Below the pieces are notes generated by a model, which saw only the letters and a program-made list of their open reading frames with translations, had not been told where the DNA came from and did not search any database. Position numbers and translations under genes: made by a program. Positions 20,765 through 54,264 of a DNA stretch of 64,000 bases are shown piece by piece. Origin of the DNA: Squalus acanthias (taxonomy: Eukaryota); assembly GCA_030390025.1 (NCBI GenBank), contig JASTWF010000330.1:310001-374000 (forward strand), read 5' to 3'. Position 1 is the stretch's first letter, and every line of letters starts with the position of its first letter.

Positions 20765-21772
20765 AAAAGTGAGAAGTCGCACAACACCAGGTTATAGTCC
20801 AACAGTTTTATTTGAAATCACAAGCTTTCGGAGTTGCTGCCCCTTCGTCGGGTGAAGTGAAGGAATACGATTCGGCAAAGCATATATAGTCAGAGAACAA
20901 TGCCTGTGTAGCATACAATGTCAGACGACTATATTTTATCTTTCTGACTGCCTTTCATCGCACCTCGGCAGAGAAACAATCAGGTCAGCCAGGAAGGCAT
21001 CACATCAAAGACATGGCAAGATACAACTGAGACAATGAGGTGGGGTCACAGGGGGTCTAATGTGTCAAATGCAGTCTGTATGGAAACCATAAACTTTAAC
21101 ATTTTTACTTTTTTTTACTGGAAATCACATCTGTGAACAAGCCAACGACGACTCCATTCTGGATGACTCTACGTCATGTAGCGTGACATGAACCCAAGAT
21201 CCCGGTTGAGGCCGTCCTCATGGGAGCGTAACTTGGCTATCAGTTTCTGCTCGATGATTTTGCGTTGTCGTGTGTCTCGAAGGCCGCCACAACCGAGATC
21301 TTGGGTTCATGTCACGTTACATGACGTAGAGTCATCCAGACTCGAGTCGTCGTTGGCTTGTTCACAGATGTGATTTCCAGTAAAAAAAGTAAAAATGTTA
21401 AAGTTTATAGTTTTCCATACAGACTGCATTTGACACATTAGACCCCCTGCGACCCCAACTCATTGTCTCAGTTGTATCTTGCTATGTCTTTGATGTGGTG
21501 CCTTCCTGGCTGACCTGATTGTTTCTCTGCCGAGGTGTGATAAAAGGCAGTCAGAAAGATTAACTGTAGTCATCTGGCATTGTACGTTACACAGGCATTG
21601 TTCTCTGTCTATATATTCTTTGCTGATTCGTATTCCTTCACTTCACCTGACGAAGGGGCAGCAGCTCCGAAAGCTTCTGATTTCAAATAAAACTGTTGGA
21701 CTATAACCTGGTGTTGTGCGACTTCTCACTTTTGTCCACCCCAGTCCAACGCCGGCATCTCCGCATCATGGC
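20765..21772. mobile_element. Penelope-like (Neptune-type) insertion forming an inverted repeat with ~448-bp arms
   Basis: Arms at 20765-21212 and 21286-21733; minus strand encodes GLRDTRQRKIIEQKLIAKLRSHEDGLNRDLGFMSRY (GIY-YIG C-terminus); ACTTTTTA duplicated on both sides; empty site near 12925. Confidence 0.9.
21642..21680 (+). ncRNA. Minimal hammerhead ribozyme motif in the Penelope terminal repeat (mirror copy on the minus strand near 20818-20858)
   Basis: TCAC-CTGACGA-A-GGGGC-AGCA-GCTCC-GAAA-GCTT: CUGANGA and GAAA cores around a 5-bp stem II. Confidence 0.7.
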
Positions 21773-25070: not shown

Positions 25071-25619
25071 TCGTTTGTTTATCTCAGGTTATTTCAGTAA
25101 AAGTCTTTAATTTGCATGGATTCCGCCATATTGTAGATCATTAATACATGATAATGTGTCAGCCAACCAGCACTGCCGCCAGTCACACGTGACCCCGATG
25201 TGATCGGTAACGGTGGATGAGCTGTCACTGACCGACTACCGCTCACAGCAGATTGTATCTGAGACTGAGGAGGGTGCAGGTGAACTGAGCAAACTCCATC
25301 TCACACAGCGACACTGCCTTTGCAGACTCTGGTAAGCAGTTGGGTATGAATGAACTTTTAGAACAAGTGCAGAAGTTTGTCGCTAGCTAGGTAGGGGCTC
25401 AGGGGTGTGTGTACTGTTCGTCCTGTCCCAATCCCGGGCTCAGTAAGGTCCTGTATTAGGATATGAGAAAGGGGTCAATACAGGGAGACTGGAGAGGGTC
25501 CTGGAGGAGAATCGGCAGGTCAGGAACACACGCGACTGAATCATTGCGGGTTTGGAGGGTGGACAGAGAAACAAGGAGGGATTGGAGTCAAGGAATTGGT
25601 GTTTATCAAGGACATGTAA

Positions 25620-25720
25620 GGAGGTGGAGCTCCCCTCTATCTGTTGTGGTCCCAGTGAGGGAGAGAGGTGGAGCTCACCTCTGTCTGTTGTGATCCCAAA
25701 GAGGGAGAGAGGTAGAGCTC
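25620..25720. repeat. Left remnant (about 2 units) of the 44-bp minisatellite that continues at 33029
   Basis: GAGGTGGAGCTCCCCTCTATCTGTTGTGGTCCCAGTGAGGGAGA units. Confidence 0.9.
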
Positions 25721-26877
25721 TGTAGGGGGTGGTGGTGGTAGGGGTCAGCCTCACCCCTGACTCAGTGAGCGGTTTGAATCGCTCCCACGCCCCAGGTTCA
25801 GACCTTGGACTTATTTAGGGGTTGTGAATAAAGATGCAGTAGACAACAGGTTCCGATGAAAGAATTTCGACTTTTATTAAAAGGAAAAGGTAACAAACTT
25901 AAAACACACTTAACACTTGAACAGGTTGGGGGGACACACGGTACAGGCGAGCGAGAAAGACAAGATACAAAAACCCTTATCCCTCCCAAAAATCCCACTA
26001 TCTAGCTAGGTTTCGGTTTCAGGAGATCAGGGGTAATGCTCACCAAACAGGGGTTTTAACAGTGCAAAATCCAGCCAGGTAAGTTGATTGCGATGGTGGT
26101 CTGGTCGTCGAGTGTCTTCCTGGAACGTGCTGCTTCTGGAACAGAGCTGAGAGAGAGAGCTGTGCGAGCGTTGTCAGAGAGTCCAGAGAGAGAGAGAGAG
26201 TCTTGGGGGGTTAGGCCCCCAATTATACTTGTTCAGCCCCTTTGTCCTTTTCGCACCCAAAACCCCTTACTAAAAATGGTTTCATGTTGAAGTGATTTAG
26301 GTTTCAGTTGAGGCCTGTTCATTCCATTGTCTTGGTTTTGCGGGCTTGTTAAGTTTTGATGGGTTTAACTTGGTGTTAAATTGTCCTGAACTCTCTTCTT
26401 ACTGAACTGTTGTAACTGCTTGATGGGCCTTCAATTATGCTAAATTGAAGTGGCCTTGTCAGAACCAAATCAAATCCTGGTCATTGTGAGACCTCGTCAA
26501 CAGTAACGACTTTACTGAGTGTCAAATGGCTTGCGTCCTGTCGATCTGTTGTTTAATCGGAGTTTGCATTGTCCTCATGTTTTGGGTTTCTTGCTGGGCC
26601 TAGCACTCCTATCTTTATGCATCTCTTTAATGGGTTCTGTGATAGGTTTTAATGGTTCCTGTGTTTTGGGTGGGGCGGCCTTCTCCCAGGGCCTATTGTC
26701 CAAATGTTACTGTTTGCTGGGGCTTGAATTTCAGACATGTCCTTTTAAAATGCCAAAGGTTGGTTTTGGTCTTAAATTCCTTATGTTAGGCCCAAATGCA
26801 TTTTTATCACTCTGGGGTAGTTCTAAAGTCCTTTTTCCTTAGATTTTTGGGGATCTGCAAATTTTGGAAACTTTACA
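25721..26877 (-). repeat. 3' LTR (1157 bp)
   Basis: Minus strand TGTAAAG...CCCCCTACA; TATA-like GTATAA near 26223-26228 followed by a CT-rich tract; AATAAA at 25873-25878. Confidence 0.93.
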
Positions 26878-26890
26878 GTCCCCCCTCCGA
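26878..26890 (-). promoter_or_regulatory. Polypurine tract
   Basis: Minus strand GGAGGGGGGAC directly abuts the TG of the 3' LTR. Confidence 0.85.
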
Positions 26891-27166: not shown

Positions 27167-28660
27167 TCAAACAGATGTATCTCTCTCCACCTCAGCATAA
27201 TGCTTCTTCCAAGTCCTTTCATTTCTGAACTGTAGTATTCTGTCCTTTCCCTTGCACTGAGTGCACAACACTATTCCCAGTTGGCAAACTACGAGGATGT
27301 GGGAAGCCATTCTGACCCATGAAGGGACCTCTATGTTTTTGAAGATGTCCCACCAGGGTGGGACTGTGATACCTTGAATCTCTCTCTCTATATCGTGTGT
27401 TTTCTGTTCTAAAGTGTAGAAATGTTTTTGAGAGAGCTCTACAGCTTTTAGTAACTTGGTAAGGCATTCTGGTAGAGGGAGAATTTCGTAACCAAAATGT
27501 GCTACATACTTTTGCAGGTTGGTGAAATGTTGTGTTACAGTGAGGTGAACACTGGAGGGTTCAGGAATGGGGACAATCCGTTCCTGGGCCACTTGAACTT
27601 CTGCCTCGGGTTTAAAGCAGAAACTGCTGTCACTTACCGGACACGAGGTATGCTGTCCATGCTGGTAGTGAGGCAAGCTGGTGGTGACACAATATGTCCC
27701 ACCTCCTATATATGCTACCTGTGGGGAAACATGGCCGTGTGCCATCACCTCCATGGTACAGTTTATAGGTCGTGCGTCAGCAGCTTTAAACCCGCACTGT
27801 GGTTTTGAATAGGCGTTCAAGTGCTTGGGACACAGTATTATGTGTGAACCCCGGCTCCGGCACCCGGAGAGGTCAGTACCTGTCATGGCGTGCTCCCACT
27901 TTATGACATAAGGTGGGACCGCTGTGAAATGGATGTGTGCACCCGCTTGAATGACTCCAATCTTCTCCACCCTGTATACCGGTGCGAGTTGGGCTGTCCC
28001 ACCCATGACCGGCATCCTCACCACTATCCCCATGGTAGTGTGATTGGAACACCCACAATCTACTGGTACAGGGTAGGCTTCAGAGGCTAGACGGAGCTGA
28101 CACGGGCTTAGTGAATTCTCAAATGGGTGGAGGGCTGCGAGGTGCTTGTTGCTGATCCAGGAGGGGACTAAACCTTGCTTTAAATCCTCCAGGTTACTCC
28201 GGCCCTCACCTAGCACCCATGCCCCGTACAGTACGCACACCTTGTTCTGTGCAGCCTGGTCTGATGCATTCCTGTCCTCCCGTATGAGTGCATTTACTGT
28301 CTTTGCGTGAATTTCCAGCTCAGCAATGATTTCTTTTAAATGGACCGTCATAGCTTGGTCCTCGTGTAACTCTGAGCCCACTACTGTATTTACATCCATT
28401 AAGATTTTGCGTAATTATGTTTTTAAACCGTTTATTTTTGTCTTCAATTCTATGTTATCCAGTCTGTTAATGACAGAGGATCCTTAATTTAATGCTGTGA
28501 AAACATAATTCCAGATTCCCCTCCTTTGTCTCCCCGTATTGCTAAAATACTCAGTGTGTGCAGCGTACAGTTCTGCTTTGTCTACATTTGCGAAATCGAA
28601 CTCGTAGAACTTCCTGAACATTTCTCTCAACAGGGCCTGGTATAGCTGTTCCGTCTCTGC
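27167..28660 (-). pseudogene. env: env-like class I fusion glycoprotein with premature stops (28484-28486, 28415-28417)
   Basis: One frame reads ...YFSNTGRQRR/GIWNYVFTALN*GSSVINRLDNIELKTKINGLKT*LRKIL into the 410-aa ORF, which has a Cys-rich region, C-terminal heptad, Trp-rich segment and hydrophobic ILVVCQLGIVLC. Confidence 0.85.
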
Positions 28661-28661
28661 T

Positions 28662-29172
28662 CAGCTTCCTGAGCCACCACCACCTTCCCAGGGGAATCTG
28701 TCCTCTGCAGGTCAGGCACACGCGTTTCCCCTCAGTGACCCCAACCCGAGTGGCTACAACCTGTATGCTGGGACAGGGGAGGGAGGTCTCCCCGTAGGTG
28801 AGCCCGGTCTGACTGGAGTATCGGGTGGAGTTAGATCCCAGCCACCCTGGCCATCTTCCCATGTGGGAATAGGTAGCGAGCTCCTTCACGCCTCGCTTGC
28901 TGCCCCCCGCAGTCACCACCGGTGCTCTCTCTCCTGAGCACCCAAAAATGTGGGAGTCCTCCACGTCACCTCGCCTCCCAGCGCTCATTCCTATCAGAGC
29001 GAGTAGGAGTATGCCCCCCCTTCATATCGCCAATCCCTTCTGTAAGGAGACACAAGAGCATATAGCCAGGTCCCGAGTAGATTCTCTGGCTTTGGTGAAG
29101 CATATTCGGGTCTTGCGACCTTGACTCAATACAAACACTCTTGAAACTATAATATATAAAACTACCAACCAC
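28662..29172 (-). pseudogene. Disrupted coding region upstream of env (env N-terminus or accessory gene), including an Ig-strand-like peptide
   Basis: ORFs 28966-29172 and 28551-28988; VGVTEGKRVCLTC...RWWWLRK. Confidence 0.35.
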
Positions 29173-29269: not shown

Positions 29270-30138
29270 CTAAACCCTGTTCGGGCTGCAGCACACTACT
29301 CCCTTTGGTGTGGCCGCCCTGTCCTGTACCTTTGGTCCCTTGCAGCCTATGGCTGCTGGCCGGGAACCTCTGTCCTCAGATCGATCCCTGACTTGAGGGG
29401 CGACCCTTTTAAATTGGGGAGCCGGTGACCACGGTTTCTTTGGCTGTGTCGTTCGTGGGGACCTTCTCGGGGCTCTGGCTGGTGGGTCTTTAACACGAGC
29501 CACTGCCCCCTGTTGTGTGGTCTGTGAATCTTCCACTGCCACTGGCTGGGGATTTCTATCCTCAGGCTGTACCTCTTCTAAACCTGTGTCAGGGTCAGGT
29601 GACTCTTCGCAGCCTGGTGCTGCAGGCTGAGGGTCCTCGCCCTCAGGTCCCACCTCCTCTAAATCCCAGAGGATTGGAGGAATGTCCCAAACGGTGGGTT
29701 GGGTGGGGTGGCCCCTCCCCTAAGACAGGCCACCGCCCCTGCTTGTGCAGTCTGTGAATTTGCTCCTGCTGCAGGCTGAGGATTTCTATCCTGTTTTAGT
29801 TTGGGCAACTCTGCTACCATGGCTTGCAACTGCGGGGTGGTGAATTCCCCCGGGGTTGTTAAGCAAACCATCCCTCTGGCTTTGAATAGGGCTTGGGCCA
29901 GACCTTTTATCCTTTCCTCACAGGGCCCATGGTTTAAATCCTCATACCCCCTGCTCCTGACTACCCTGTAGGCTGCCTTTATGTCTCTAAGCTGCCCCTC
30001 TAGCCCGTCTACTTTACCCGTTAAGCGGGCGTTCTCCTCCCGTAAGGCCTGCTCATTTAACCTGGCCTCCTTACGGGAGGTCTCTTCCTGTGCGTGTCTT
30101 TCAAGAGGGCACAGGTAGACAGGCTGCGCTGGTTCTAG
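29270..30138 (-). pseudogene. ORF X: Gag-coiled-coil paralogue followed by Pro/Gln-rich repeats and an RRSPR motif (frameshift near 29655)
   Basis: Open frame 30138-29662 continues in frame after the gag stop; ENARL..KAAYRV..EERIKGLAQALFKARGMVCL aligns with Gag KNARL..QAAYKV..EEQIESLSLALRKARGVACL. Confidence 0.7.
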
Positions 30139-31937
30139 TCATAGGTCTGGGTTGTATGGGGCTGATGGGGTCAGAGCACCGGTGGTTGCTGCTACCTTCC
30201 CTGGGCCTGTCAATAGGGACCTCATGGCGTCCAAAAATGACTCGACCGTGGCGGGAGGGATCCCTGTCTCTGACTTTTGGGCTGGGGCTGAGGAATTCTT
30301 TCCCTTGTTATCCTTCCAAGGATTCTTACACTCCTTCCTCCAGTGACCATCCTTCCCACACCCATAACAGTTAAGCTTTGTGCTGGAAGGGTTATTCCCC
30401 TCCTGATGCCACTCCTTCCTACTCTGGCCGGGTTTTATTTCATGCACTTTCCCCTTTTGTGGGGGCTCTTCAGCCCCTCTACCGTTCCGGTAGGCCAGGT
30501 TCAGCTGTCTGACCACTGCCTCCTCGGTGACCCGGGGGTCTTTCGGTTCAAACCAAAGGTCAGCCTTGGCTTTGATCCATGGCAAGATGTTTGCCACTAG
30601 GCTACGGAGCCAGTGGGCCAGCTCGTCCCTGTTCAGGTTAGCCCTGTCGACAGCCCCATTACAAGCACCCCTGTACACCGGCCACAGCCAGTCTGCGAAA
30701 GCTTGTGGGGTCTCCCCTGCGAGCTGCACTGTTTTCTCCACCCGGGAGAAAGGACTTCCCTCATTCATCCCCATGGCCTCTAAAACTTCCTCTCTGATGG
30801 CAGCATACCCGGTCAGTCCTCTCTTGCTCTCAGCAGAGAGGGACTGGTATAGCCGGCTATTCCGTGAGAACAGGAGCATTTTTGCCATCTTGGCATCATC
30901 ACAGTCGTTGATGCCTGCTGCCTGTTCCACTTCCATGAAGTGGACTGAGGGGTCCCCTTGTTGGGTGAGTTTACTCAGGTGGCTTACCATAAACCTAAGC
31001 TGTTGTGTACCGTGGGGAGCCACGAACTGGCTTTGGAGGGGTCCCCCATCCCCGTTATCAGCGGGTGGGCCAAACTTTTGCTGCCGGGCCGGCACATCGG
31101 CCCCGGTCCCAGCCTCTCTTGTGGGGGTTTTTCCACCTCAGCTTCTGCCCCTAACTCCACCCCTTCTTCTTGCCAGACTTCGCTAAAGCTTGACGCTATG
31201 GGTGGTGTTCGTGGGCCCACCTGCTCCTCAACAGGTTCGTCCCTTGGCACTATCTGTGGTGTCTGAACCGTTCTCCCCAGGTTCCCTGTAAAGTCGACCT
31301 GGGCTGCACTTGGGCTTATGAGGCACGCCACGCCTCTTGCCTTCCTTAGAGCAAGGCTGAGACTCTCTATCTGCTCCTCAAACTCCTGTGCGCTCATTAC
31401 CTTATAGGCTGCCTGTAAGCCTTTCACTGTCTCCTCCTGCTCTTTTACTTGTTTTGCCAGGCGGGCATTCTTTTCCCACAACCTCAGCTCATTGTTCTTG
31501 CCCTCAGTGACCTGGCACTGTAAATTTTCCTGCTGGGTTTTATGTTCCCACACTAACTGCACCCTTTCCTGGTTTAGCGCCTGCAATGCTAACAGTAACT
31601 TCTCCCCTGCTAGGGCCTTCGTTTGGACTTCCAGGGCTGACTCCCGAATCTCGGCTGCCTGTGCTTCAACGAGTCTGTCCAAAAGTTGGATCTGTTTCTT
31701 GAAGCACATCAGCCAGACTGCCTTTTCTAAGGATTTTTTATGATCCTTCCCTTCTGTCCATTTAGCTGCAGCATCTACCGGGCGCCCAGTCTTTAACAGA
31801 TTAGTGACCCACTTCTTTTCCATATTCACCTTGCTGAATACATAATCTGAAATCCTCTCTTCCATTACAGTTCTCTTTTCCAAATCAGTGTCTACTGCTT
31901 CACAACCCTTTTGCCAAGTCAGTGCCATGGTCGCCAT
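30139..31937 (-). pseudogene. gag: gag (coiled-coil N-terminus, capsid-like middle, CCHC zinc knuckle), one frameshift near 31093
   Basis: ORFs 30984-31937 and 30139-31095 join as ...GPMC/PARQQKFGP; CYGCGKDGHWRKEC (CX2CX4HX4C) at 30328-30369. Confidence 0.9.
31923..31936 (-). promoter_or_regulatory. Primer binding site (TGGCGACCATGGCA), probably tRNA-Arg
   Basis: TGG begins after a 3-nt spacer following the 5' LTR CA; resembles the complement of vertebrate tRNA-Arg 3' ends (...GGTCGCCA), tRNA identity from memory. Confidence 0.75.
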
Positions 31938-31939
31938 TA

Positions 31940-33028
31940 TGTAGGGGGTGGTGGTGGTAGGGGTCAGCCTTACCCCTGACTCAGTGGGCGGTTCGAATCG
32001 CTCCCACGCCCCAGGTTCAGACCTTGGACTTATTTAGGGGTTGTGAATAAAGATGCAGTAGACAACAGGTTCCGATGAAAGAATTTTGACTTTTATTAAA
32101 AGAAAAAGGTAACAAACTTAAAACACACTCAACACTTAAACAGGTTGGGGAGAATGACAATATACAAAAACCCTTATCCCTCCCAAAAATCCCACTATCT
32201 AGCTAGGTTTTGGTTTCAGGAGATCAGGGATAATGCTCACCAAACAGGGGTTTTAACAGTGCGAAATCCAACCAGGTAAGTTGATGGTGGTCTGGTCGTC
32301 GAGTGTCTTCCTGGAACGTGCTGCTTCTGGAACTAGGCCGAGAGGGAGCTGTGCGAGCGTTGTCAGAGAGTCCAGAGAGAGAGAGAGAGAGAGTCTTGGG
32401 GGATAGGCCCCCAATTATACTTGTTCAGCTCCTTTGTACTTTTCGCTCCCAGAAACCCTTACTAAAAATGGTTTCGTGCTGAAGTGATTTGGTTTCAGTT
32501 GAGGCCTGTTCATTCCATTGTTTTGGTTCGTTGCAGGCTTGTTAAGTTTTGATGGGTTTAACTTGGTGTTAACATGTTACTGAACTGTTGTGACTGCTTG
32601 ATGGGCCTTCAATTATGCTAAATTGAAGTGGCCTTGTGAGAACCAAATCAAATCCTGGTCATTGTAAGACCTCGTTAACAGTAACGGCTTTACTGAGTGT
32701 CAAATGGCTTGCGTCCTGTCGATCTGTTGTTTAATCGGAGTTTGCATTGTCCTATTGTTTTGGGTTTCTTGCTGGGCCTAGCACTCCTATCTTTATGCGT
32801 CTCTTTAATGGGTTCTGTGTTTTGGGTGGAGCGGCCTTCTCCCAGGGCCTATTGTCCAAATGTTAATGTTTGCTGGGGCTTGAATTCCAGCCTTTTAAAA
32901 TGCCATAAGGTTGGTTTTGGTCTTAAATTCCTTATATTAGGGCCAAATGCATTTTTATCACTCTGGGGTAGTTCCAAAGTCCTTTTTCCTTAGATTTTTG
33001 GGGATCGGCAAATTTTGAAAACTTTACA
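31940..33028 (-). repeat. 5' LTR (1089 bp)
   Basis: Colinear with 25721-26877, differing by substitutions and several indels. Confidence 0.93.
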
Positions 33029-34222
33029 CAGTGAGGGAGAGAGGTAGAGCTCCCCTCTATCTGTAGTGGTCCCAGTGAGGGAGAGAGGTAGAGCTCCCCT
33101 CTGTCTGTAGTGGTCCCAGTGAGGGAGAGAGGTGGAGCTCCCCTCTGTCTGTAGGGGTCCCAGTGAGGGAGAGAGGTAGAGCTCACCTCTATCTGTAGGG
33201 GTCCCAGTGAGGGAGAGAGGTAGAGCTCACCTCTGTCTGTAGGGTCCCAGTGAGGGAGAGAGGTAGAGCTCACCTCTGTCTGTACGGGTCCCAGTGAGGG
33301 AGAGAGGTAGAGCTCCCGTCTATCTGTAGGGGTCCCAGTGAGGGAGAGAGGTGGAGCTCCCCTCTGTCTGTAGGGGTCCCAGTGAGGGAGAGAGGTAGAG
33401 CTCACCTCTATCTGTAGGGGTCCCAGTGAGGGAGAGAGGTGGAGCTCACCTCTGTCTGTAGGGGTCCCAGTGAGGGAGAGAGGTAGAGCTCACCTCTGTC
33501 TGTAGGGGTCCCAGTGAGGGAGAGAGGTAGAGCTCATCTCTGTCTGTAGGGGTCCCAGTGAGGGAGAGAGGTGGAGCTCACCTCTGTCTGTAGGGGTCCC
33601 AGTGAGGGAGAGAGTAGAGCTCACCTCTATCTGTAGGGGTCCCAGTGAGGGAGAGAGGTGGAGCTCACCTCTATCTGTTGTGATCCCAGTGAGGGAGAGA
33701 GGTGGAGCTCCCCTCTGTCTGTAGGGGTCCCAGTGAGGGAGAGAGGTAGAGCTCACCTCTGTCTGTAGGGGTCCCAGTGAGGGAGAGAGGTAGAGCTCAC
33801 CTCTATCTGTAGGGGTCCCAGTGAGGGAGAGAGGGAGAGCTCACCTCTATCTGTAGTGGTCCCAGTGAGGGAGAGAGGTAGAGCTCATCTCTGTCTGTAG
33901 GGGTCCCAGTGAGGGAAAGAGGGAGAGCTCACCTCTGTCTGTAGGGGTCCCAGTGAGGGAGAGAGGTAGAGCTCACCTCTGTCTGTAGGGGTCCCAGTGA
34001 GGGAGAGAGGTAGAGCTCACCTCTATCTGTAGGGGTCCCAGTGAGGGAGAGAGGGAGAGCTCACCTCTATCTGTAGTGGTCCCAGTGAGGGAGAGAGGTA
34101 GAGCTCATCTCTGTCTGTAGGGGTCCCAGTGAGGGAAAGAGGGAGAGCTCACCTCTGTCTGTAGGGGTCCCAGTGAGGGAGAGAGGTGGAGCTCACCTCT
34201 GTCTGTAGGGGTCCCAGTGAGG
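33029..34222. repeat. 44-bp minisatellite (CAGTGAGGGAGAGAGGTAGAGCTCACCTCTGTCTGTAGGGGTCC)n, about 27 units
   Basis: Tandem periodicity; internal AGAGGT...ACCTCT dyad around GAGCTC. Confidence 0.97.
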
Positions 34223-34679
34223 TGAAACTCACCCACTATAGATAGATGTACTCAATGATTGCCTGTCGCACTCCCTATTTCAATTTCCCTCGGATCCCCT
34301 AGCCCCTTCAAGCTCTCTGACACTAATTCTGCATTTTCCTTTCTAGAATATCATCCCGTGAGATGAGGACTCTGTTGCTGATTCTGGGTTACCTGAGTAA
34401 GTAATTTTCATTATAGACAAACTGCACCCTTTGTACAACAAGAGCAAGTTGTGTTTATATACCGTCTTTAGGTAGAATAACCTCCCATGGTGCTTCAGAG
34501 ATCTGATCAAGGATCGGATGACGTGGCAGAGTAGGAGATGTCTGGAGGGGTGACCAGAAGTTTTAAGGAGGGTCTTAAAGGAGGAGAGAGAGGTGGAGAG
34601 GAGGAGAGGTTTAGGGAGGGAATTACAGAGCTTGAGATCTTGGTGGTTAAAAGCACTGCTGCCAATGGTGGGGAAAGGG

Positions 34680-36379: not shown

Positions 36380-39300
36380 GTATGCATTTGTAACAGATCT
36401 TTAATATTTGCATTATTGATTGATATTATTTATTATGCATCTGTAATATTTATTTGCATTATTGATTATTATGCATTTGGAATAGAATTTTAATATTTGT
36501 CTCATTGATGATATTTATTGTGGATTTGGAATAGATCTTTAATATTTGTCTCATTGATGATATTATTTATTGTGGATTTGGAATAGATCTTTAATATTTG
36601 TCTCATTATTTGATGTTATTTATTGTGGATTTGGAATAGATATTTAATTATTGTCTCATTATTTGATATTATTTATTCTGGATTTGGAATAGATCTTTAA
36701 TATTTGTCTCATTGATGATATTATTTATTGTGGATTTGGAATAGATCTTTAATATTTCTCTCATTGTTCGATGTTATTTATTGTGGATTTGGAATAGATC
36801 TTTAATATTTGTCTCATTGATGATATTATTTATTGTGGATTTGGAATAGATCTTTAATATTTGTCTCATTGATGATATTATTTATTGTGGATTTGGAACA
36901 GATCTTTAATATTTGTCTCATTGATGATATTATTTATTGTGGATTTGGAACAGATCTTTAATATTTGTCTCATTGATGATATTATTTATTGTGGATTTGG
37001 AACAGATCTTTAATATTTCTCTCATTGTTTGATATTATTTATTGTGGATTTGGAACAGATCTTTAATATTTGTCTCATTGATGATATTATTTATTGTGGA
37101 TTTGGAATAGATCTTTAATATTTGTCTCATTGATGATATTATTTATTGTGGATTTGGAATAGATCTTTAATATTTCTCTCATTATTTGATGTTATTTATT
37201 GTGGATTTGGAATAGATATTTAATTATTGTCTCATTATTTGATATTATTTATTCTGGATTTGGAATAGATCTTTAATATTTGTCTCATTGATGATATTAT
37301 TTATTGTGGATTTGGAATAGATCTTTAATATTTCTCTCATTGTTCGATGTTATTTATTGTGGATTTGGAATAGATCTTTAATATTTGTCTCATTGATGAT
37401 ATTATTTATTGTGGATTTGGAATAGATCTTTAATATTTGTCTCATTGATGATATTATTTATTGTGGATTTGGAATAGATCTTTAATATTTGTCTCATTGA
37501 TGATATTATTTATTGTGGATTTGGAATAGATCTTTAATATTTGTCTCATTATTTGATATTATTTATTGTGGATTTGGAATAGATCTTTAATATTTGTCTC
37601 ATTATTTGATATTATTTATTGTGGATTTGGAATAGATCTTTAATATTTCTCTCATTAATGATATTATTTATTGTGCATTTGGAATAGATCTTTAATATTT
37701 GTCTCAATATTTGATATTATTTATTGTGGATTTGGAATAGATCTTTAATATTTGTCTCATTGATGATATTATTTATTGTGGATTTGGAATAGATCTTTAA
37801 TATTTGTCTCATTGATGATATTATTTATTGGGGATTTGGAATAGATCTTTAATATTTGTCTCATTGATGATATTATTTATTGGGGATTTGGAATAGATCT
37901 TTAATATTTGTCTCATCGATAATATTATTTATTGGGGATTTGGAATAGATCTTTAATATTTGTCTCATCGATGATATTATTTATTGTGGATTTGGAATAG
38001 AGCTTTAATATTTGTCACATTGTTTGATATTATTGTGGATTTGGAATAGATCTTTAATAATTGTCTCATTGTTTGATATTATTTATTGTGGATTTGGAAT
38101 AGATCTTTAATACTTGTCTCATTGTTTGATATTATTTATTGTGGATTTGGAATAGATCTTTAATATTTGTCTCATTGATGATATTATTTATTCTGGATTT
38201 GGAATAGATCTTTAATATTTGTCTCATTGATGAAGTTATTTATTGTGAATTTGGAATAGATCTTTAATATTTGTCTCATTGATGATATTATTTATTGCGG
38301 ATTTGGAATAAATCTTTAATATTTGTCTCATCGATGATATTATTTATTGTGGATTTGGAATAGATCTTTAATATTTGTCTCATTGATGATATTATTTATT
38401 GTGGATTTGGAATAGATCTTTAATATTTGTCCCATTGATGATATTCTTTATTGTGAATTTGGAATAGATCTTTAATATTTGTCTCACTGTTGATATTATT
38501 TATTGTGGATTTGGAATATATCTTTAATATTTGTCTCATTGATGATATTATTTATTGTGGATTTGGAATAGATCTTTAATATTTGTCTCATTGATGATAT
38601 TATTTATTGTGGATTTGGAATAGATCTTTAATATTTGTCTCATTGATGATATTATTTATTGTGGATTTGGAATATATCTTTAATATTTGTCTCATTGATG
38701 ATATTATTTATTGTAGATTTGGAATAGATCTTTAATATTTGTCTCATTGATGATATTATTTATTGTAGATTTGGAATAGATCTTTAATATTTGTCTCATT
38801 GATGATATTATTTATTGTGGATTTGGAATAGATCTTTAATATTTGTCTCATTGATGATATTATTTATTGTAGATTTGGAATAGATCTTTAATATTTGGCT
38901 CATTGATGATATTATTTATTGTGGATTTGGAATAGATCTATAATATTTGTCTCAGTGATGATATTATTTATGTGGATTTGGAATAGATCTTTAATATTTC
39001 TCTCATTGATGACATTATTTATTGTGGATTTGGAATAGATCTTTAATATTTCTCTCATTGTTCGATGTTATTAATTGTGGATTTGGAATAGATGTTTAAT
39101 ATATCTCTCATTGATGATATTATTATATGTGGATTTGGAATAGATCTTTAATATTTCTCTCATTGTTTGATGTTATATATTGTGGATTTGGAATAGATCT
39201 TTAATATTTCTCTCATTGTTTGATGTTATATATTGTGGATTTGGAATAGATCTTTAATATTTGTCTCAATATTTGATATTATTTATTGTGGATTTGGAAT

Positions 39301-42300
39301 AGATCTTTAATATTTGTCTCATTGATGATATTATTTATCGTGGATTTGGAATAGATCTTTAATATTTCTCTCATTGATGATATTATTTATTGTGGATTTG
39401 GAATAGATCTTTAATATTTGTCTCATTATTTGATATTATTTATTGTGGATTTGGAATAGATCTTTAATATTTCTCTGATTGTTTGATGTTATATATTGTG
39501 GATTTGGAATAGATCTTTAATATTTCTCTCATTGTTTGATGTTATATATTGTGGATTTGGAATAGATCTTTAATATTTGTCTCAATATTTGATATTATTT
39601 ATTGTGGATTTGGAATAGATCTTTAATATTTGTCTCATTGATGATATTATTTATTGTGGATTTGGAATAGATCTTTAATATTTGTCTCATTGATGATATT
39701 ATTTATTGTGGATTTGGAATAGATCTTTAATATTTGTCTCATTGATGATATTATTTATTGTGGATTTGGAATAGATCTTTAATATTTGTCTCATTGATGA
39801 CATTATTTATTGTGGATTTGGAATAGATCTTTAATATTTGTCTCATTATTTGATATTATTTACTGTGGATTTGGAATAGATCTTTAATATTTGTCACATT
39901 GATGATATTATTTATTGTGGATTTGGAATAGATCTTTAATATTTGTCTCATTGATGATATTATTTATTGTGGATTTGGAATAGATCTTTAATATTTCTCT
40001 CATTATTTGATATTATTTACTGTGGATTTGGAATAGATCTTTAATATTTCTCTCATTGATGATATTATTTATTGTGGATTTGGAATAGATCTTTAATATT
40101 TCTCTCAATGATGATATTATTTATTGTGGATTTGGAATAGATCTTTAATATTTCTCTCATTGTTTGATGTTATTTATTGTGGATTTGGAATAGATCTTTA
40201 AAATTTGTCTTATTGATGATATTATTTATTGTGGATTTGGAATAGATCTTTAATATTTCTCTCATTGATGATATTATTTATTGTAGATTTGGAATAAATC
40301 TTTAATATTTGTCTCATTGATGATATTATTTATTGTGGATTTGGAATAGATCTTTAATATTTGTCTCATTGATGAAATTATTTATTGTGGATTTGGAATA
40401 GATCTTTAATATTTGTCTCATTGTTTGATATTATTTATTGTGGATTTGGAATAGATCTTTAATATTTGTCTCATTGATGAAATTATTTATTGTGGATTTG
40501 GAATAAATCTTTAGTATTTGTCTCATTGATGATATTATTTATTGTGGATTTGGAATAAATCTTTAATATTTGTCTCATTGATGATATTATTTATTGTGGA
40601 TTTGGAATAGATCTTTAATATTTCTCTCATTGTTTGATGTTATATATTGTGGATTTGGAATAGATCTTTAATATTTGTCTCATTGATGATATTATTTATT
40701 GTGGATTTGGAATAGATCTTTAATATTTGTCTCATTGATGATATTATTTATTGTGGATTTGGAATAGATCTTTAATATTTCTCTCATTGTTTGATGTTAT
40801 TTATTGTGGATTTGGAATAGATCTTTAATATTTGTCTCATTGATGATATTATTTATTGTGGATTTGGAATAGATCTTTAATATTTGTCTCATTGATGATA
40901 TTATTTATTGTGGATTTGGAATAGATCTTTAATATTTGTCTCATTGATGATATTATTTATTGTGGATTTGGAATAGATCTTTAATATTTGACTCATTGAT
41001 GATATTATTTACTGTGGATTTGGAATAGATCTTTAATATTTGTCTCATTGATGATATTATTTATTGTGGATTTGGAATAGATCTTTAATATTTGTCTCAT
41101 TGATGATATTATTTATTGTGGATTTGGAATAGATCTTTAATATTTGTCTCATTGATGATATTATTTATTGTGGATTTGGAATAGATCTTTAATATTTGTC
41201 TCATTGATGATATTATTTATTGTGGATTTGGAATAGATCTTTAATATTTGGCTCATTGATGATATTATTTATTGTGGATTTGGAATAGATCTTTAATATT
41301 TGGCTCATTGATGATATTATTTATTGTGGATTTGGAATAGATCTTTAATATTTGTCCCATTGATGATATTATTTATTGTGGATTTGGAATAGATCTTTAA
41401 TATTTGTTTCATTGATGAAATTATTTATTGTGGATTTGGAATAGATCTTTAATATTTGTCTAATTGATGATATTATTTATTGTGGATTTGGAATAGATCT
41501 TTAATATTTGTTTCATTGATGAAATTATTTATTGTGGATTTGGAATAGATCTTTAATATTTGTCTAATTGATGATATTATTTATTGTGGATTTGGAATAG
41601 ATCTTTAATATTTGTCTCATTGATGATATAATTTATTGTGGATTTGGAATAGATCTTTAATATTTCTCTCATTGATGATATTATTTATTGTGGATTTGGA
41701 ATAGATCTTTAATATTTGTCTCATTGATGATATTATTTATTGTGGATTTGGAATAGATCTTTAATATTTCTCTCATTGATGATATTATTTATTGTGGATT
41801 TGGAATAGATGTTTAATATTTGTCTCATTGATGATATTATTTATTGTGGATTTGGAATAGATCTTTAATATTTGTCTCATTATTTGATATTATTTATTGT
41901 GGATTTGGAATAGATCTTTAATATTTGTCTCATTGATGATTTTATTTATTGTGGATTTGGAATAGATCTTTAATATTTGTCTCATTGATGATATTATTTA
42001 TTGTGGATTTGGAATAGATCTTTAATATTTGTCTCATTGATGATATTATTTATTGTGGATTTGGAATAGATCTTTAATATTTGTCTCATTGATGATATTA
42101 TTTATTGTGGATTTGGAATAGATCTTAAATATTTGTCTCATTGTTTGAAATTATTTATCGTGGATTTGGAATAGATTTTAAATATTTGTCTCATTATTTG
42201 ACATTATTTATTGTGGATTTGGAATAAATCTTTCATATTTGTCTCATTGATGATTTTATTTATTGTGGATTTGGAATAGATCTTTAATATTTGTCTCATC

Positions 42301-45300
42301 GATGATATTATTTATTGTGGATTTGGAATAGATCTTTAATATTTCTCTCATTGATGATATTATTTATTGTGGATTTGGAATAAATCTTTAATATTTCTCT
42401 CATTGATGATATTATTTATTGTGGATTTGGAATAGATCTTTAATATTTCTCTCATTGATGATATTATTTATTGTGGATTTGGAATAGATCTTTAATATTT
42501 GTCTCATTAATGACATTATTTATTGTGGATTTGGAATAGATCTTTAATATTTCTCTCATTGATGATATTATTTATTGTGGATTTGGAATAGATCTTTAAT
42601 ATTTGTCTCATTAATTACATTATTTATTGTGGATTTGGAATAGATCTTTAATATTTGTCTCATTGATGATATTATTTATTGTGGATTTTGAATAGATCTT
42701 TAATATTTGTCTCATTGATGATATTATTTATTGTGGATTTGGAATAGATCTTTAATATTTCTCTCATTGATGATATTATTTATTGTGGATTTGGAATAGA
42801 TCTTTAATATTTGTCTCATTAATTACATTATTTATTGTGGATTTGGAATAGATCTTTAATATTTGTCTCATTGATGATATTATTTATTGTGGATTTGGAA
42901 TAGATCTTTAATATTTGTCTCATCGATGATATTATTTATTGTGGATTTGGAATAGATCTTTAATATTTGTCCCATTGATGATGTTATTTATTGTGGATTT
43001 GGAATAGATCTTTAATATTTGTCTCATCGATGATATTATTTATTGTGGATTTGGAATAGATCTATAATATTTGTCTCAGTGATGATATTATTTATGTGGA
43101 TTTGGAATAGATCTTTAATATTTCTCTCATTGATGACATTATTTATTGTGGATTTGGAATAGATCTTTAATATTTCTCTCATTGTTCGATGTTATTAATT
43201 GTGGATTTGGAATAGATGTTTAATATATCTCTCATTGATGATATTATTATATGTGGATTTGGAATAGATCTTTAATATTTCTCTCATTGTTTGATGTTAT
43301 ATATTGTGGATTTGGAATAGATCTTTAATATTTCTCTCATTGTTTGATGTTATATATTGTGGATTTGGAATAGATCTTTAATATTTGTCTCAATATTTGA
43401 TATTATTTATTGTGGATTTGGAATAGATCTTTAATATTTGTCTCATTGATGATATTATTTATCGTGGATTTGGAATAGATCTTTAATATTTCTCTCATTG
43501 ATGATATTATTTATTGTGGATTTGGAATAGATCTTTAATATTTGTCTCATTATTTGATATTATTTATTGTGGATTTGGAATAGATCTTTAATATTTCTCT
43601 GATTGTTTGATGTTATATATTGTGGATTTGGAATAGATCTTTAATATTTCTCTCATTGTTTGATGTTATATATTGTGGATTTGGAATAGATCTTTAATAT
43701 TTGTCTCAATATTTGATATTATTTATTGTGGATTTGGAATAGATCTTTAATATTTGTCTCATTGATGATATTATTTATTGTGGATTTGGAATAGATCTTT
43801 AATATTTGTCTCATTGATGATATTATTTATTGTGGATTTGGAATAGATCTTTAATATTTGTCTCATTGATGATATTATTTATTGTGGATTTGGAATAGAT
43901 CTTTAATATTTGTCTCATTGATGACATTATTTATTGTGGATTTGGAATAGATCTTTAATATTTGTCTCATTATTTGATATTATTTACTGTGGATTTGGAA
44001 TAGATCTTTAATATTTGTCACATTGATGATATTATTTATTGTGGATTTGGAATAGATCTTTAATATTTGTCTCATTGATGATATTATTTATTGTGGATTT
44101 GGAATAGATCTTTAATATTTCTCTCATTATTTGATATTATTTACTGTGGATTTGGAATAGATCTTTAATATTTCTCTCATTGATGATATTATTTATTGTG
44201 GATTTGGAATAGATCTTTAATATTTCTCTCAATGATGATATTATTTATTGTGGATTTGGAATAGATCTTTAATATTTCTCTCATTGTTTGATGTTATTTA
44301 TTGTGGATTTGGAATAGATCTTTAAAATTTGTCTTATTGATGATATTATTTATTGTGGATTTGGAATAGATCTTTAATATTTCTCTCATTGATGATATTA
44401 TTTATTGTAGATTTGGAATAAATCTTTAATATTTGTCTCATTGATGATATTATTTATTGTGGATTTGGAATAGATCTTTAATATTTGTCTCATTGATGAA
44501 ATTATTTATTGTGGATTTGGAATAGATCTTTAATATTTGTCTCATTGTTTGATATTATTTATTGTGGATTTGGAATAGATCTTTAATATTTGTCTCATTG
44601 ATGAAATTATTTATTGTGGATTTGGAATAAATCTTTAGTATTTGTCTCATTGATGATATTATTTATTGTGGATTTGGAATAAATCTTTAATATTTGTCTC
44701 ATTGATGATATTATTTATTGTGGATTTGGAATAGATCTTTAATATTTCTCTCATTGTTTGATGTTATATATTGTGGATTTGGAATAGATCTTTAATATTT
44801 GTCTCATTGATGATATTATTTATTGTGGATTTGGAATAGATCTTTAATATTTGTCTCATTGATGATATTATTTATTGTGGATTTGGAATAGATCTTTAAT
44901 ATTTCTCTCATTGTTTGATGTTATTTATTGTGGATTTGGAATAGATCTTTAATATTTGTCTCATTGATGATATTATTTATTGTGGATTTGGAATAGATCT
45001 TTAATATTTGTCTCATTGATGATATTATTTATTGTGGATTTGGAATAGATCTTTAATATTTGTCTCATTGATGATATTATTTATTGTGGATTTGGAATAG
45101 ATCTTTAATATTTGACTCATTGATGATATTATTTACTGTGGATTTGGAATAGATCTTTAATATTTGTCTCATTGATGATATTATTTATTGTGGATTTGGA
45201 ATAGATCTTTAATATTTGTCTCATTGATGATATTATTTATTGTGGATTTGGAATAGATCTTTAATATTTGTCTCATTGATGATATTATTTATTGTGGATT

Positions 45301-48300
45301 TGGAATAGATCTTTAATATTTGTCTCATTGATGATATTATTTATTGTGGATTTGGAATAGATCTTTAATATTTGGCTCATTGATGATATTATTTATTGTG
45401 GATTTGGAATAGATCTTTAATATTTGGCTCATTGATGATATTATTTATTGTGGATTTGGAATAGATCTTTAATATTTGTCCCATTGATGATATTATTTAT
45501 TGTGGATTTGGAATAGATCTTTAATATTTGTTTCATTGATGAAATTATTTATTGTGGATTTGGAATAGATCTTTAATATTTGTCTAATTGATGATATTAT
45601 TTATTGTGGATTTGGAATAGATCTTTAATATTTGTTTCATTGATGAAATTATTTATTGTGGATTTGGAATAGATCTTTAATATTTGTCTAATTGATGATA
45701 TTATTTATTGTGGATTTGGAATAGATCTTTAATATTTGTCTCATTGATGATATAATTTATTGTGGATTTGGAATAGATCTTTAATATTTCTCTCATTGAT
45801 GATATTATTTATTGTGGATTTGGAATAGATCTTTAATATTTGTCTCATTGATGATATTATTTATTGTGGATTTGGAATAGATCTTTAATATTTCTCTCAT
45901 TGATGATATTATTTATTGTGGATTTGGAATAGATGTTTAATATTTGTCTCATTGATGATATTATTTATTGTGGATTTGGAATAGATCTTTAATATTTGTC
46001 TCATTATTTGATATTATTTATTGTGGATTTGGAATAGATCTTTAATATTTGTCTCATTGATGATTTTATTTATTGTGGATTTGGAATAGATCTTTAATAT
46101 TTGTCTCATTGATGATATTATTTATTGTGGATTTGGAATAGATCTTTAATATTTGTCTCATTGATGATATTATTTATTGTGGATTTGGAATAGATCTTTA
46201 ATATTTGTCTCATTGATGATATTATTTATTGTGGATTTGGAATAGATCTTAAATATTTGTCTCATTGTTTGAAATTATTTATCGTGGATTTGGAATAGAT
46301 TTTAAATATTTGTCTCATTATTTGACATTATTTATTGTGGATTTGGAATAAATCTTTCATATTTGTCTCATTGATGATTTTATTTATTGTGGATTTGGAA
46401 TAGATCTTTAATATTTGTCTCATCGATGATATTATTTATTGTGGATTTGGAATAGATCTTTAATATTTCTCTCATTGATGATATTATTTATTGTGGATTT
46501 GGAATAAATCTTTAATATTTCTCTCATTGATGATATTATTTATTGTGGATTTGGAATAGATCTTTAATATTTCTCTCATTGATGATATTATTTATTGTGG
46601 ATTTGGAATAGATCTTTAATATTTGTCTCATTAATGACATTATTTATTGTGGATTTGGAATAGATCTTTAATATTTCTCTCATTGATGATATTATTTATT
46701 GTGGATTTGGAATAGATCTTTAATATTTGTCTCATTAATTACATTATTTATTGTGGATTTGGAATAGATCTTTAATATTTGTCTCATTGATGATATTATT
46801 TATTGTGGATTTTGAATAGATCTTTAATATTTGTCTCATTGATGATATTATTTATTGTGGATTTGGAATAGATCTTTAATATTTCTCTCATTGATGATAT
46901 TATTTATTGTGGATTTGGAATAGATCTTTAATATTTGTCTCATTAATTACATTATTTATTGTGGATTTGGAATAGATCTTTAATATTTGTCTCATTGATG
47001 ATATTATTTATTGTGGATTTGGAATAGATCTTTAATATTTGTCTCATCGATGATATTATTTATTGTGGATTTGGAATAGATCTTTAATATTTGTCCCATT
47101 GATGATGTTATTTATTGTGGATTTGGAATAGATCTTTAATATTTGTCTCATCGATGATATTATTTATTGTGGATTTGGAATAGATCTTTAATATTTGTTC
47201 CATTGATGATATTATTTATTGTGGATTTGGAATAGATCTTTAATATTTGTCTCATTGATTACGTTATTTATTGTGGATTTGGAATAGATCTTTAATATTT
47301 GTCTCATTGATGATGTTATTTATTGTGGATTTGGAATAGATCTTTAATATTTGTCTCATCGATGATATTATTTATTGTGGATTTGGAATAGATCTTTAAT
47401 ATTTGTCTCATTAATTACGTTATTTATTGTGGATTTGGAATAGATCTTTAATATTTGTCTCATTGATGATGTTATTTATTGTGGATTTGGAATAGATCTT
47501 TAATATTTGTCTCATCGATGATATTATTTATTGTGGATTTGGAATAGATCTTTAATATTTGTTCCATTGATGATATTATTTATTGTGGATTTGGAATAGA
47601 TCTTTAATATTTGTTCCATCGATGATATTATTTATTGTGGTTTTGGAATAGATCTTTAATATTTGTCTCATTGATGATATTATTTATTGTGGATTTGGAA
47701 TAGATCTTTAATATTTGTTCCATTGATGATATTATTTATTGTGGATTTGGAATAGATCTTTAATATTTGTCTCATTAATTACATTATTTATTGTGGATTT
47801 GGAATAGATCTTTAATATTTGTCTCATCGATGATATTATTTATTGTGGATTTGGAATAGATCTTTAATATTTGTTCCATTGATGATATTATTTATTGTGG
47901 ATTTGGAATAGATCTTTAATATTTGTCTCATTGATGATATTATTTATTCTGGATTTGGAATAGATCTTTAATATTTGTCTCATCGATGATATTATTTATT
48001 GTGGATTTGGAATAGATCTTTAATATTTGTCTCATTGATGATATTATTTATTGTGGATTTGGAATAGATCTTTAATATTTGTTCCATTGATGATATTATT
48101 TATTGTGGATTTGGAATAGATATTTAATATTTGTCTCATTGATGATATTATTTATTGTGGATTTGGAATAGATCTTTAATATTTGTTCCATTGATGATAT
48201 TATTTATTGTGGATTTGGAATAGATATTTAATATTTGTCTCATCGATGATATTATTTATTGTGGATTTGGAATAGATATTTAATATTTGTCTCATCGATG

Positions 48301-51300
48301 ATATTATTTATTGTGGATTTGGAATAGATCTTTAATATTTGTTCCATTGATGATATTATTTATTGTGGATTTGGAATAGATCTTTAATATTTGTTCCATC
48401 GATGATATTATTTATTGTGGATTTGGAATAGATCTTTAATATTTGTCTCATTGATGATATTATTTATTGTGGATTTGGAATAGATCTTTAATATTTGTTC
48501 CATTGATGATATTATTTATTGTGGATTTGGAATAGATATTTAATATTTGTCTCATCGATGATATTATTTATTGTGGATTTGGAATAGATCTTTAATATTT
48601 GTCTCATCGATGATATTATTTATTGTGGATTTGGAATAGATCTTTAATATTTGTTCCATTGATGATATTATTTATTGTGGATTTGGAATAGATCTTTAAT
48701 ATTTGTCTCATTATTTGATATTATTTATTGTGGATTTGGAATAGATCTTTAATATTTGTCTCATTATTTGATATTATTTATTGTGGATTTGGAATAGATC
48801 TTTAATATTTGTCTCATTATTTGATATTATTTATTGTGGATTTTGAATAGATCTTTAATATTTGTCTCATTATTTGATATTATTTATTGTGGATTTTGAA
48901 TAGATCTTTAATATTTGTCTAATTGATGATATTATTTATTGTGGATTTGGAATAGATCTTTAATATTTGTCTCATTGATGATATTTTTTATTGTGGATTT
49001 GGAATAGATCTTTAATATTTGTCTCATTGTTAGATATTATTTATTGTGGATTTGGAATAGATCTTTAATATTTGTCTCATTGATGATATTATTTATTGTG
49101 GATTTGGAATAGATCTTTAATATTTGTCTCATCGATGATGTTATTAATTGTGGATTTGGAATAGATCTTTAATATTTCTCTCATTGATGATATTATTTAT
49201 TCTGGATTTGGAATAGATCTTTAATATTTGTCTCATTGATTATATTATTTATTGTGGATTTGGAATAGATCTTTAATATTTGTCTCATTATTTGATATTA
49301 TTTATTGTGGATTTTGAATAGATCTTTAATATTTGTCTCATTGATGATATTATTTATTGTGGATTTGGAATAGATCTTTAATATTTGTCTCATTGTTCGA
49401 TGTTATTTATTGTGGATTTTGAATAGATCTTTAATATTTGTCTCATTGATGATATTATTTATTGTGGATTTGGAATAGATCTTTAATATTTGTCTCATTA
49501 ATGACATTGTTTATTGTGGATTTGGAATAGATCTTTAATATTTGTTCCATTGATGATATTATTTATTGTGGATTTGGAATAGATCTTTAATATTTGTCTC
49601 ATTGATGATATTATTTATTGTGGATTTGGAAGAGATCTTTAATATTTGTCTCATTGATGATATTATTTATTGTGGATTTGGAATAGATATTTAAAATTTG
49701 TCTCATTGATGATTTTATTTATTTTGGATTTGGAATAGATCTTTAATATTTGTCTCATTGATGATATTATTTATTGTGGATTTGGAATAGATCTTTAATA
49801 TTTCTCTCATTGATGATATTATTTATTGTGGATTTGGAATAGATCTTAAATATTTGTCTCATTGATGATATTATTTATTGTGGATTTGGAATAGATCTTT
49901 AATATTTGTCTCATTGATGATATTATTTATTGTGGATTTGGAATAGATCTTTAATATTTGTCCCATTGATGATATTATTTATTGTGGATTTGGAATAGAT
50001 CTTTAATATTTGTCTCATTGATGATATTATTTATTGTGGATTTGGAATAGATCTTTAATATTTGTCCCATTGATGATATTATTTATTGTGGATTTGGAAT
50101 AGATCTTTAATATTTGTCTCATTGATGATATTATTTATTGTGGATTTGGAATAGATCTTTAATATTTGTCCCATTGATGATATTATTTATTGTGGATTTG
50201 GAATTGATCTTAAATATTTGTCTCATTGATGATATTATTTATTGTGGATTTGGAATAGATCTTTAATATTTGTCTCATTGTTCGATATTATTTATTGTGG
50301 ATTTGGAATAGATCTTTAATATTTGTCTCATTGATGATATTATTTATTGTGGATTTGGAATAGATCTTTAATATTTGTCCCATTGATGATATTATTTATT
50401 GTGGATTTGGAATAGATCTTTAATATTTCTCTCATTGATGATATTATTTATTGTGGATTTGGAATAGATCTTTAATATTTGTCTCATTGTTAGATATTAT
50501 TTATTGTGGATTTGGAATAGATCTTTAATATTTGTCTCATTGATGATATTATTTATTGTGGATTTGGAATAGATCTTTAATATTTGTCCCATTGATGATA
50601 TTATTTATTGTGGATTTGGAATAGATCTTTAATATTTCTCTCATTGATGATATTATTTATTGTGGATTTGGAATAGATCTTTAATATTTGTCTCATTGTT
50701 AGATATTATTTATTGTGGATTTGGAATAGATCTTTAATATTTGTCTCATTGATTATGTTAATTTGCTGTGGATTTGGAATACATCTTTAATATTTGTATC
50801 TTTGATGATATTATTTATTGTGGATTTCGAATAGATCTTTAATATTTGTTTCATTGTTTGATATTATTTATTGTGGATTTGGAATAGATCTTTAATATTT
50901 GTCTCATCGATGATATTATTTATTGTGGATTTGGAATAGATCTTTAATATTTGTTCCATTGATGATATTATTTATTGTGGATTTGGAATAGATCTTTAAT
51001 ATTTGTCTCATTGATGATATTATTTATTCTGGATTTGGAATAGATCTTTAATATTTGTCTCATCGATGATATTATTTATTGTGGATTTGGAATAGATCTT
51101 TAATATTTGTCTCATTGATGATATTATTTATTGTGGATTTGGAATAGATCTTTAATATTTGTTCCATTGATGATATTATTTATTGTGGATTTGGAATAGA
51201 TATTTAATATTTGTCTCATTGATGATATTATTTATTGTGGATTTGGAATAGATCTTTAATATTTGTTCCATTGATGATATTATTTATTGTGGATTTGGAA

Positions 51301-53800: not shown

Positions 53801-54264
53801 TCCTCCTTCTTGGACTCGAGATAATTGAGGAAATGTTATATCTTTATGTTTTTCCAGAATCACTGTTATTTACTTACGCAAATATTGTAAATCTTTATAT
53901 ACTTCTTTCTAATATTTAGCTAAATGTATTTCTTCTTTTAATTTAATAGTTATATTTATATATTTGTACATTTAAAAATTAATTACATTGGTTTATTTGG
54001 TTATTTTTCCCATTGTGATTTATTTGTTATGATTCCATTCAGTTTTTATATTTATCTTAATATTTATATTACATATACATATACTCAGTCTTTAGATAGT
54101 ATATTTTGCAGAGCATTTATAGAATGTATTATTGAAATACTATTTATAGTCAGCCTCCAATTTATTTATACATTCAATATTTATGTATATATAATTTAAT
54201 GGTTTTATCAATGAAGTACCAGCAACAGAGAGTTATTCCAAATCTAATTTCACCTGGGGACTGA

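Follow-up and report, generated by a model that had tools for sequence, protein, structure and literature searches.

The 64-kb window analysed here (the whole stretch of 64,000 nucleotides of Squalus acanthias DNA) carries on its minus strand a 7.3-kb provirus with the order LTR-gag-X-env-LTR and no pol, as seen in the window sequence and its six-frame reading. A TGA-CTAG stop at the end of gag leads in frame into X, which is homologous to the tip of the Gag coiled coil and the start of capsid. The explanation that we favour, with confidence evenly balanced between acceptance and doubt, is that the provirus belongs to a pol-less, likely helper-dependent family of cartilaginous-fish endogenous retroviruses (ERVs). 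Such a family would have kept a likely ancestral UGA-CUAG signal while its pol was likely replaced by a gag fragment of a sister subfamily, and its intact members would make Gag together with a few percent of Gag-X.

Results

Organisation and state of the provirus

Across the six frames of the provirus interior, no protease, RT or integrase motif was found. The 5′ LTR (TGT...ACA; 31940..33028, on the minus strand like all provirus features below) pairs with the 3′ LTR at 25721..26877, with 46 mismatches in 1082 aligned columns and 11 gap runs, and a polypurine tract (26878..26889) adjoins the 3′ LTR. At 31920..31936 there is a primer-binding-site-like sequence, TGGCGACC..., which may be of the tRNA-Arg type. 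The gag ATG at 31937 overlaps this sequence (31937-31920), and another in-frame ATG is found three codons further on. The provirus sits within a 44-nt tandem repeat seen on both flanks (33029-34227 and 25618-25720); no target-site duplication is evident at its ends, where the flanking 44-nt repeats resume at different unit phases.

The gag gene (30139..31937) was delimited by tblastn of P0010, a full-length relative of 619 residues, which matches the window in two frames at 45% and 63% identity, the higher value belonging to the second half. Its product contains N-terminal helices and a long coiled coil, a linker, capsid and one CCHC knuckle (Pfam zf-CCHC, E 0.0012). In the structure model of P0010 a long helix spans residues 58-191 at high confidence, and residues 151-225 form a helix-loop-helix (pLDDT 68-93 per block) in which the end of the long helix is followed by a loop and then by a fold-back helix. 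Fold searches with the Gag model returned no match at E 0.001 or better: capsid fold matches were weak, to Gag proteins at E 0.007-0.1 and to none in the PDB, and the VIA rows were generic helical hairpins with Z of 8 or less. The capsid-start region of gag, at 30978-30869, is predicted to fold as stably as the region after the gag stop (z −4.5, rank 1 of 78 folding windows).

The env gene (27167..29030), with several breaks, was recognised by tblastn and three-frame reading and is 51–67% identical to shark and ray proteins by tblastn. Its front part (29021-28551) has a weak Ig_3 match (E 0.026) and 51% identity to a ray protein model. Three-frame reading recovers an R-Q-R-R site, a hydrophobic stretch, heptads and a C-terminal hydrophobic segment, and searches of Pfam (F protein, PF00523) and of PDB sequences gave no match to F. 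The structure model of the env relative P0023 reached a pLDDT of 36, too low for a fold search. Named relatives of env and gag from the protein search are gene models of sawshark, catshark and skate, which point to a cartilaginous fish as host. In one sawshark gene model, P0009 (‘Niban 1-like’), the opening part is env sequence from this ERV family, probably a mis-joined or exonised ERV piece.

This copy is dead, its frame being broken in gag near 31,100, in X near 29,700 and in env at several places. Because gag splits into two frames upstream of its stop, ribosomes from the gag ATG would miss the frame of the TGA, and the proposal in the first-pass annotation of this DNA that the element itself would make Gag-X fails for this copy. 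Production of Gag-X by other members of the family nevertheless seems likely.

The gag stop and the frame beyond it

The end of gag reads GAC CTA TGA CTA GAA on the minus strand, with the TGA at 30141-30139 and TGA-CTAG at 30141-30135, and the earlier reading of a UGA-CUAG stop with an in-frame continuation is thus confirmed. As the alignment with P0010 extends to 30151, a few residues short of the end of that protein, this is the natural end of gag. The stop carries the UGACUA hexanucleotide of type II readthrough sites; UGA-CUA is classed as a type II context (PMC13517186), and in human genes the leaky UGA-CUAG context is read through at a rate of about 1.5% or higher (PMC9841425). By itself TGACTAG is not rare, with 7 copies on the two strands of the 64-kb window.

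Frame X (30138-29659) is open for 159 codons after the TGA, up to a stop at 29661-29659. The probability of such an open frame by chance at the local composition is about 0.001, for a length criterion chosen after the fact. The first-pass annotation had described a frame of about 159 codons without an upstream start, and indeed the frame has no ATG upstream of codon 90, at 29871. The Gag-like part therefore has no start of its own, which would make readthrough its likeliest route of translation.

The Gag coiled-coil tip has its counterpart in residues 23-97 of X, and the core of X (29848..30069) is a second copy of this tip, comprising a helix, an HGPC loop, a fold-back helix and G-x-V-C-L. 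X is identical to the window’s own Gag at 28 of 74 positions (38%, E 6e-12) and to P0010 at 30 of 74, ungapped. Its local alignment score with own Gag is 115, against maxima of 57 in 2000 plain shuffles and 60 in 2000 shuffles that kept heptad phase; the score with P0010 is 159, shuffle maxima for the two being 57-62. X exceeded all 2000 shuffles for seven of the eight Gag targets, the exception being the short P0017. A profile of 10 Gag relatives built with no rows from the window gave X 51.3 bits over residues 23-119, compared with −1.8 for reversed X and 8.0 for the best shuffle among 1000 (735 scored). The similarity to the Gag coiled coil claimed earlier is therefore significant against shuffled controls in both pairwise and profile comparisons.

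Fused directly to the coiled-coil piece is a stub of the capsid start (TPQL-AMV--LPKL; 29779..29838, about residues 101-120), which scores 56 against P0010 (reached by 0 of 3000 shuffles) and 44 against own Gag (3 of 3000). Since X passes straight from coiled-coil tip to capsid stub, about 95 linker codons are absent. The remainder of X is a proline-rich, low-complexity tail with an internal 72-nt repeat (29270..29778); after the break near 29,700 it continues as a 149-codon proline-rich frame (29719-29270), which has no clear match to Gag (the best score was reached by 25 of 1000 shuffles, in four comparisons). Screening of 1001 longer and 39 near-length candidate proteins brought up no relative of X other than Gag, and Atlas features for residues 15-120 were all below 0.9 and uninformative. 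A Pfam IN_DBD_C match on X (E 0.098) was set aside because it overlaps the clear Gag match.

A 14-bp hairpin is predicted at 30036..30080, straddling the start of the Gag homology about 58 nt past the stop (−26.1 kcal/mol, z −5.3, for a stretch picked post hoc). Of 78 folding windows, that of the 110 nt following the gag stop ranks 2nd; taken by itself, the hairpin closest to the stop falls short of significance (z −1.3). The hairpin across the start of the homology may be a template-switch scar or an aid to readthrough.

A probable inherited gag-pol signal

In the lokiretrovirus consensus elements with a separately annotated gag, our search of the accessible supplement of PMC7947760 found a TGA-CTA stop in six of seven. 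The stop continues as CTAG in Ofa, Pyo and Sau and as CTAA in Bsp, Dcl and Lro, and in the seventh gag (Tfu) TGN-CTA stands at the corresponding position. A further ten entries, in which gag and pol are annotated as one ORF, lie outside this count; Cne has TGA-CTAG ahead of pol. Followed by eye, the frame past TGA-CTA enters the start of pol in Bsp, Pyo, Sau, Cne, Dcl and Lro, and that of Ofa was not followed to its end. About 12 codons past the stop, five lokiretrovirus entries have V-Y-[L/F/R], to which V-Y-L at codons 7-9 in the window bears a weak likeness. The recurrence of TGA-CTA at six of seven lokiretrovirus gag stops, ahead of pol, argues that the signal in the window is likely an inherited gag-pol readthrough site, and homology suggests that an ancestor would have made Gag-Pol through UGA-CUA.

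Contigs of related animals were compared from 4 of the 22 runs listed, covering 3 organisms; such contigs show presence only, and their depth gives no copy number. In run X11 a gag end unlike that of the window joins at 30142 and shares 33 bases with it (30142-30110). Among the contigs listed, five from run X10 leave the window sequence at 30110, ten codons past the stop. These joints mark out ten codons (30110..30138) that are shared with a divergent gag subfamily, and a conserved block that begins right after the stop across subfamilies and ends after ten codons fits a surviving start of pol. The first-pass claim that readthrough originally made Gag-Pol is supported as likely by the lokiretrovirus stops (in the part of the source accessible) and by the 33 shared bases. 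Its corollary, a deletion of pol that left the first codons, gains from the lack of pol motifs in six frames and from the behaviour of these ten or so codons as a shared pol start. The captured gag piece would then begin near 30070, at the inverted repeat.

X is covered by many contigs in all four runs. Contigs spanning the end of the coiled coil, the stub and the tail have about 94-95% identity to the window (X10 record 5 and X11 record 12), and one links the X tail to the start of env (X11 record 11). None of the contigs listed bridges the stop and the X core, where pieces at 30399-30116 and 30074-29951 leave a gap, and the in-frame junction of stop and X is seen in one copy only, that of the window. 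Among the variants listed, length differences inside X and its tail are of 18, 138 and 39 nt, all three multiples of three, and listed non-coding length variants are of 1-2 nt. A skip of 29622-29760 spans this copy’s own break and was excluded from the in-frame count. Three in-frame variants would arise by chance about 1 time in 27, in a small sample scored at the joints. The frame-keeping variants are a hint that the frame of X mattered while the family spread. Two of the runs have contigs with the 138-nt skip; it takes out the fold-back helix together with the stub, which argues that X is dispensable.

Origin of X

X is as distant from its own Gag (38%) as from the Gags of other subfamilies. 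A tree separates X, own Gag, P0010 and P0011 from the P0013 group with support of 98/99, without resolving the four among themselves; the branch leading to X is long (0.57). Evidence on the source of the fragment comes from two contigs in run X6. In one, the X stub passes into capsid sequence (joint 30957/29789, depth 22); the other matches the stub, ahead of which it carries 84 different letters similar to the Gag linker. At the DNA level the stub gives no alignment to own gag. Together these observations point towards a full gag of a sister subfamily as the donor, and the two contigs of this one run suggest that X is an internally deleted fragment of such a gag, rather than an older accessory gene. 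Capture could have occurred by recombination between co-packaged RNAs.

The first-pass annotation had taken X for a Gag-derived accessory ORF: derivation from Gag holds, and no pre-existing accessory gene between pol and env was seen. Its own alternative, recombinant capture should another gag match the segment, is favoured by the X6 contigs, which indicate a full gag nearer to X than own gag. We also considered X as the lokiretroviral ‘smc’ accessory gene and dropped the idea, as the annotation available places smc in the front part of the gag ORF (smc-gag-pol); the accessible supplement of PMC7947760 annotates no separate Gag paralogue in the lokiretrovirus set. The HGPC loop, present in X and lost from this copy’s Gag, was weighed as proof of a foreign origin, but at 31375 the contigs of three runs stop or have loose ends, and its loss may therefore be particular to this copy.

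Discussion

The provirus resembles several known systems without coinciding with any. Mouse IAP 1-delta-1 is a non-autonomous, pol-deleted ERV whose fusion ORF acts in cis to aid retrotransposition (PMC6466679). As there, enzyme sequence has been lost, LTRs, primer-binding site and polypurine tract have been kept and an extra ORF lies in frame with gag, X being found in many contigs of all four runs. IAP 1-delta-1, as described in the accessible part of its source, joins its own gag and pol remnants in one ORF, whereas here gag is whole in layout, the second Gag piece stands behind a readthrough-type stop and env is retained. By analogy with IAP 1-delta-1, Gag-X might act in cis, helping the RNA that encodes it when particles assemble with helper proteins.

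Lokiretroviruses, whose RT is sister to that of all other retroviruses, are organised as LTR-gag-pol-env-LTR, with a tether and dual RNase H, and their Env is related to paramyxo/pneumovirus F (PF00523), with an RXKR-type site, fusion peptide, coiled coil and TM (PMC7947760). In a comparison made without RT, the shark provirus resembles them in the long N-terminal Gag coiled coil (‘smc’), in the TGA-CTA that closes gag and, within env, in a furin-type site that precedes a hydrophobic stretch and heptads. It differs in having a Gag with a CCHC knuckle and a second Gag piece, neither of which figures in the lokiretrovirus descriptions accessible to us. The full lokiretroviral layout is lacking in this copy, which without pol could be a deleted derivative at most; the zebrafish lokiretrovirus BHIKHARI-1 is likewise pol-less (bioRxiv 2024.03.25.586437). 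None of six chondrichthyan genomes scored positive for lokiretroviruses (PMC7947760, accessible part).

Snakehead retrovirus (SnRV) and other fish retroviruses make Gag-Pol by readthrough of an in-frame stop, in the contexts UAGGGC (SnRV), UGAAGA, UGACGA and UGAAGU (PMC13517186), and SnRV-like ERVs are known in elephant shark (PMC4977317). Our element is similar to this group in its aquatic host and in a predicted readthrough context at an in-frame gag stop. UGACUA is absent from the contexts given in the accessible part of that source, however, and the downstream frame there is pol, not a Gag fragment. The UAG-GGC of SnRV, where the window has TGA-CTAG, is a single-virus trait and a weak test of clade. 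With the type II UGA-CUA sites of alphaviruses and with cellular UGA-CUAG genes (PMC13517186, PMC9841425, PMC3159437) the provirus shares the stop context and a predicted 3′ structure within 110 nt. The significant predicted hairpin here, unlike those of alphavirus-type sites as far as described in these sources, starts about 58 nt past the stop and overlaps in part with the captured piece.

Our favoured explanation has to be weighed against other histories. TGA-CTAG and the stub of pol may be relics, with a gag fragment that landed in frame by chance and any Gag-X a mere passenger. We consider such a neutral scar fairly unlikely. A fragment would land in frame 1 time in 3, and open frames can persist without selection in young families; the skipping of 138 nt of the X core in contigs of two runs, the long branch of X and the failure of our searches to find an X protein relative outside Gag all fit this history, against which stand the preservation of frame in all three listed length variants and the presence of X pieces in other organisms at 94-95% identity. 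Quite improbable in our judgement is that X arose as an old tandem duplicate of the helix of own gag, or as an accessory gene between pol and env of an autonomous virus, and was later joined to gag by deletion of pol. The E-x-N-A-R-L motif common to X and own Gag, and the grouping of X in the tree, where the P0013 group stands apart from X, own Gag, P0010 and P0011, would suit that origin, but identity to own Gag is only 38%, X has no start codon, the X6 contigs show a full gag nearer to the X stub, and in the lokiretrovirus set, as far as its annotation is accessible, there is no separate Gag paralogue and ‘smc’ is the N-terminus of gag.

Complex fish retroviruses use spliced accessory messages, and X could in the same way come from a spliced message with an acceptor in the pyrimidine-rich run at 30125-30088, the readthrough context being incidental. 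Behind the pyrimidines come AG (30100-30099) and CAG (30090-30088). We regard this route as very improbable: the conserved block stops at 30110, upstream of both AGs, and none of the seven listed contig joints, which show presence only, ends at such an acceptor.

To our knowledge, retroviral readthrough is known only as a means of making Gag-Pol. A pol-less family with the signal placed before a Gag fragment would, if the favoured explanation is right, have put a readthrough switch to a second use, the dosing of a structural module, in a variant of the cis-helper idea of IAP 1-delta-1. More speculative, and in our view unlikely to hold as a whole, is a two-part proposal. Its first part is that a family parasitic on retroviruses reused the gag-pol switch to place a captured Gag coiled-coil module on a small share of Gag, which would co-assemble with helper Gag to win packaging. 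The second is that UGA-CUA is an ancient, unreported Gag-Pol route common to the shark elements and teleost lokiretroviruses. Should X instead be a neutral scar, the provirus is an ordinary defective one with an unusual recombination history. The presence of TGA-CTA at nearly every annotated lokiretrovirus gag stop in the accessible supplement bears on pol expression in a deep retrovirus lineage and may matter more than Gag-X. The accessible main text of PMC7947760 contains no mention of readthrough, read-through, stop codon or frameshift, and the section on non-gamma retroviral readthrough in a 2026 review, in the part available, lists no UGACUA case (PMC13517186). Our literature search, with incomplete coverage of subscription papers, found no paper joining lokiretroviruses and readthrough. 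Searches on duplicated gag in retrotransposons (coverage of subscription papers and Repbase notes again being incomplete) returned no paper, those on non-autonomous ERVs lacking pol no relevant paper and one fungal case, and those on CUAG readthrough at the gag-pol junction of retrotransposons nothing on such elements. Locus searches of metagenome contigs, viral contigs and prokaryote genomes yielded no pol-bearing relatives.

Elsewhere in the window, an AT-rich satellite with a 52-nt unit (about 300 copies, GC 0.23) forms an array of about 17 kb at positions 36600-54000, and a 455-nt inverted repeat at 20765-21733 has arms that are 91% complementary and 59 nt apart.
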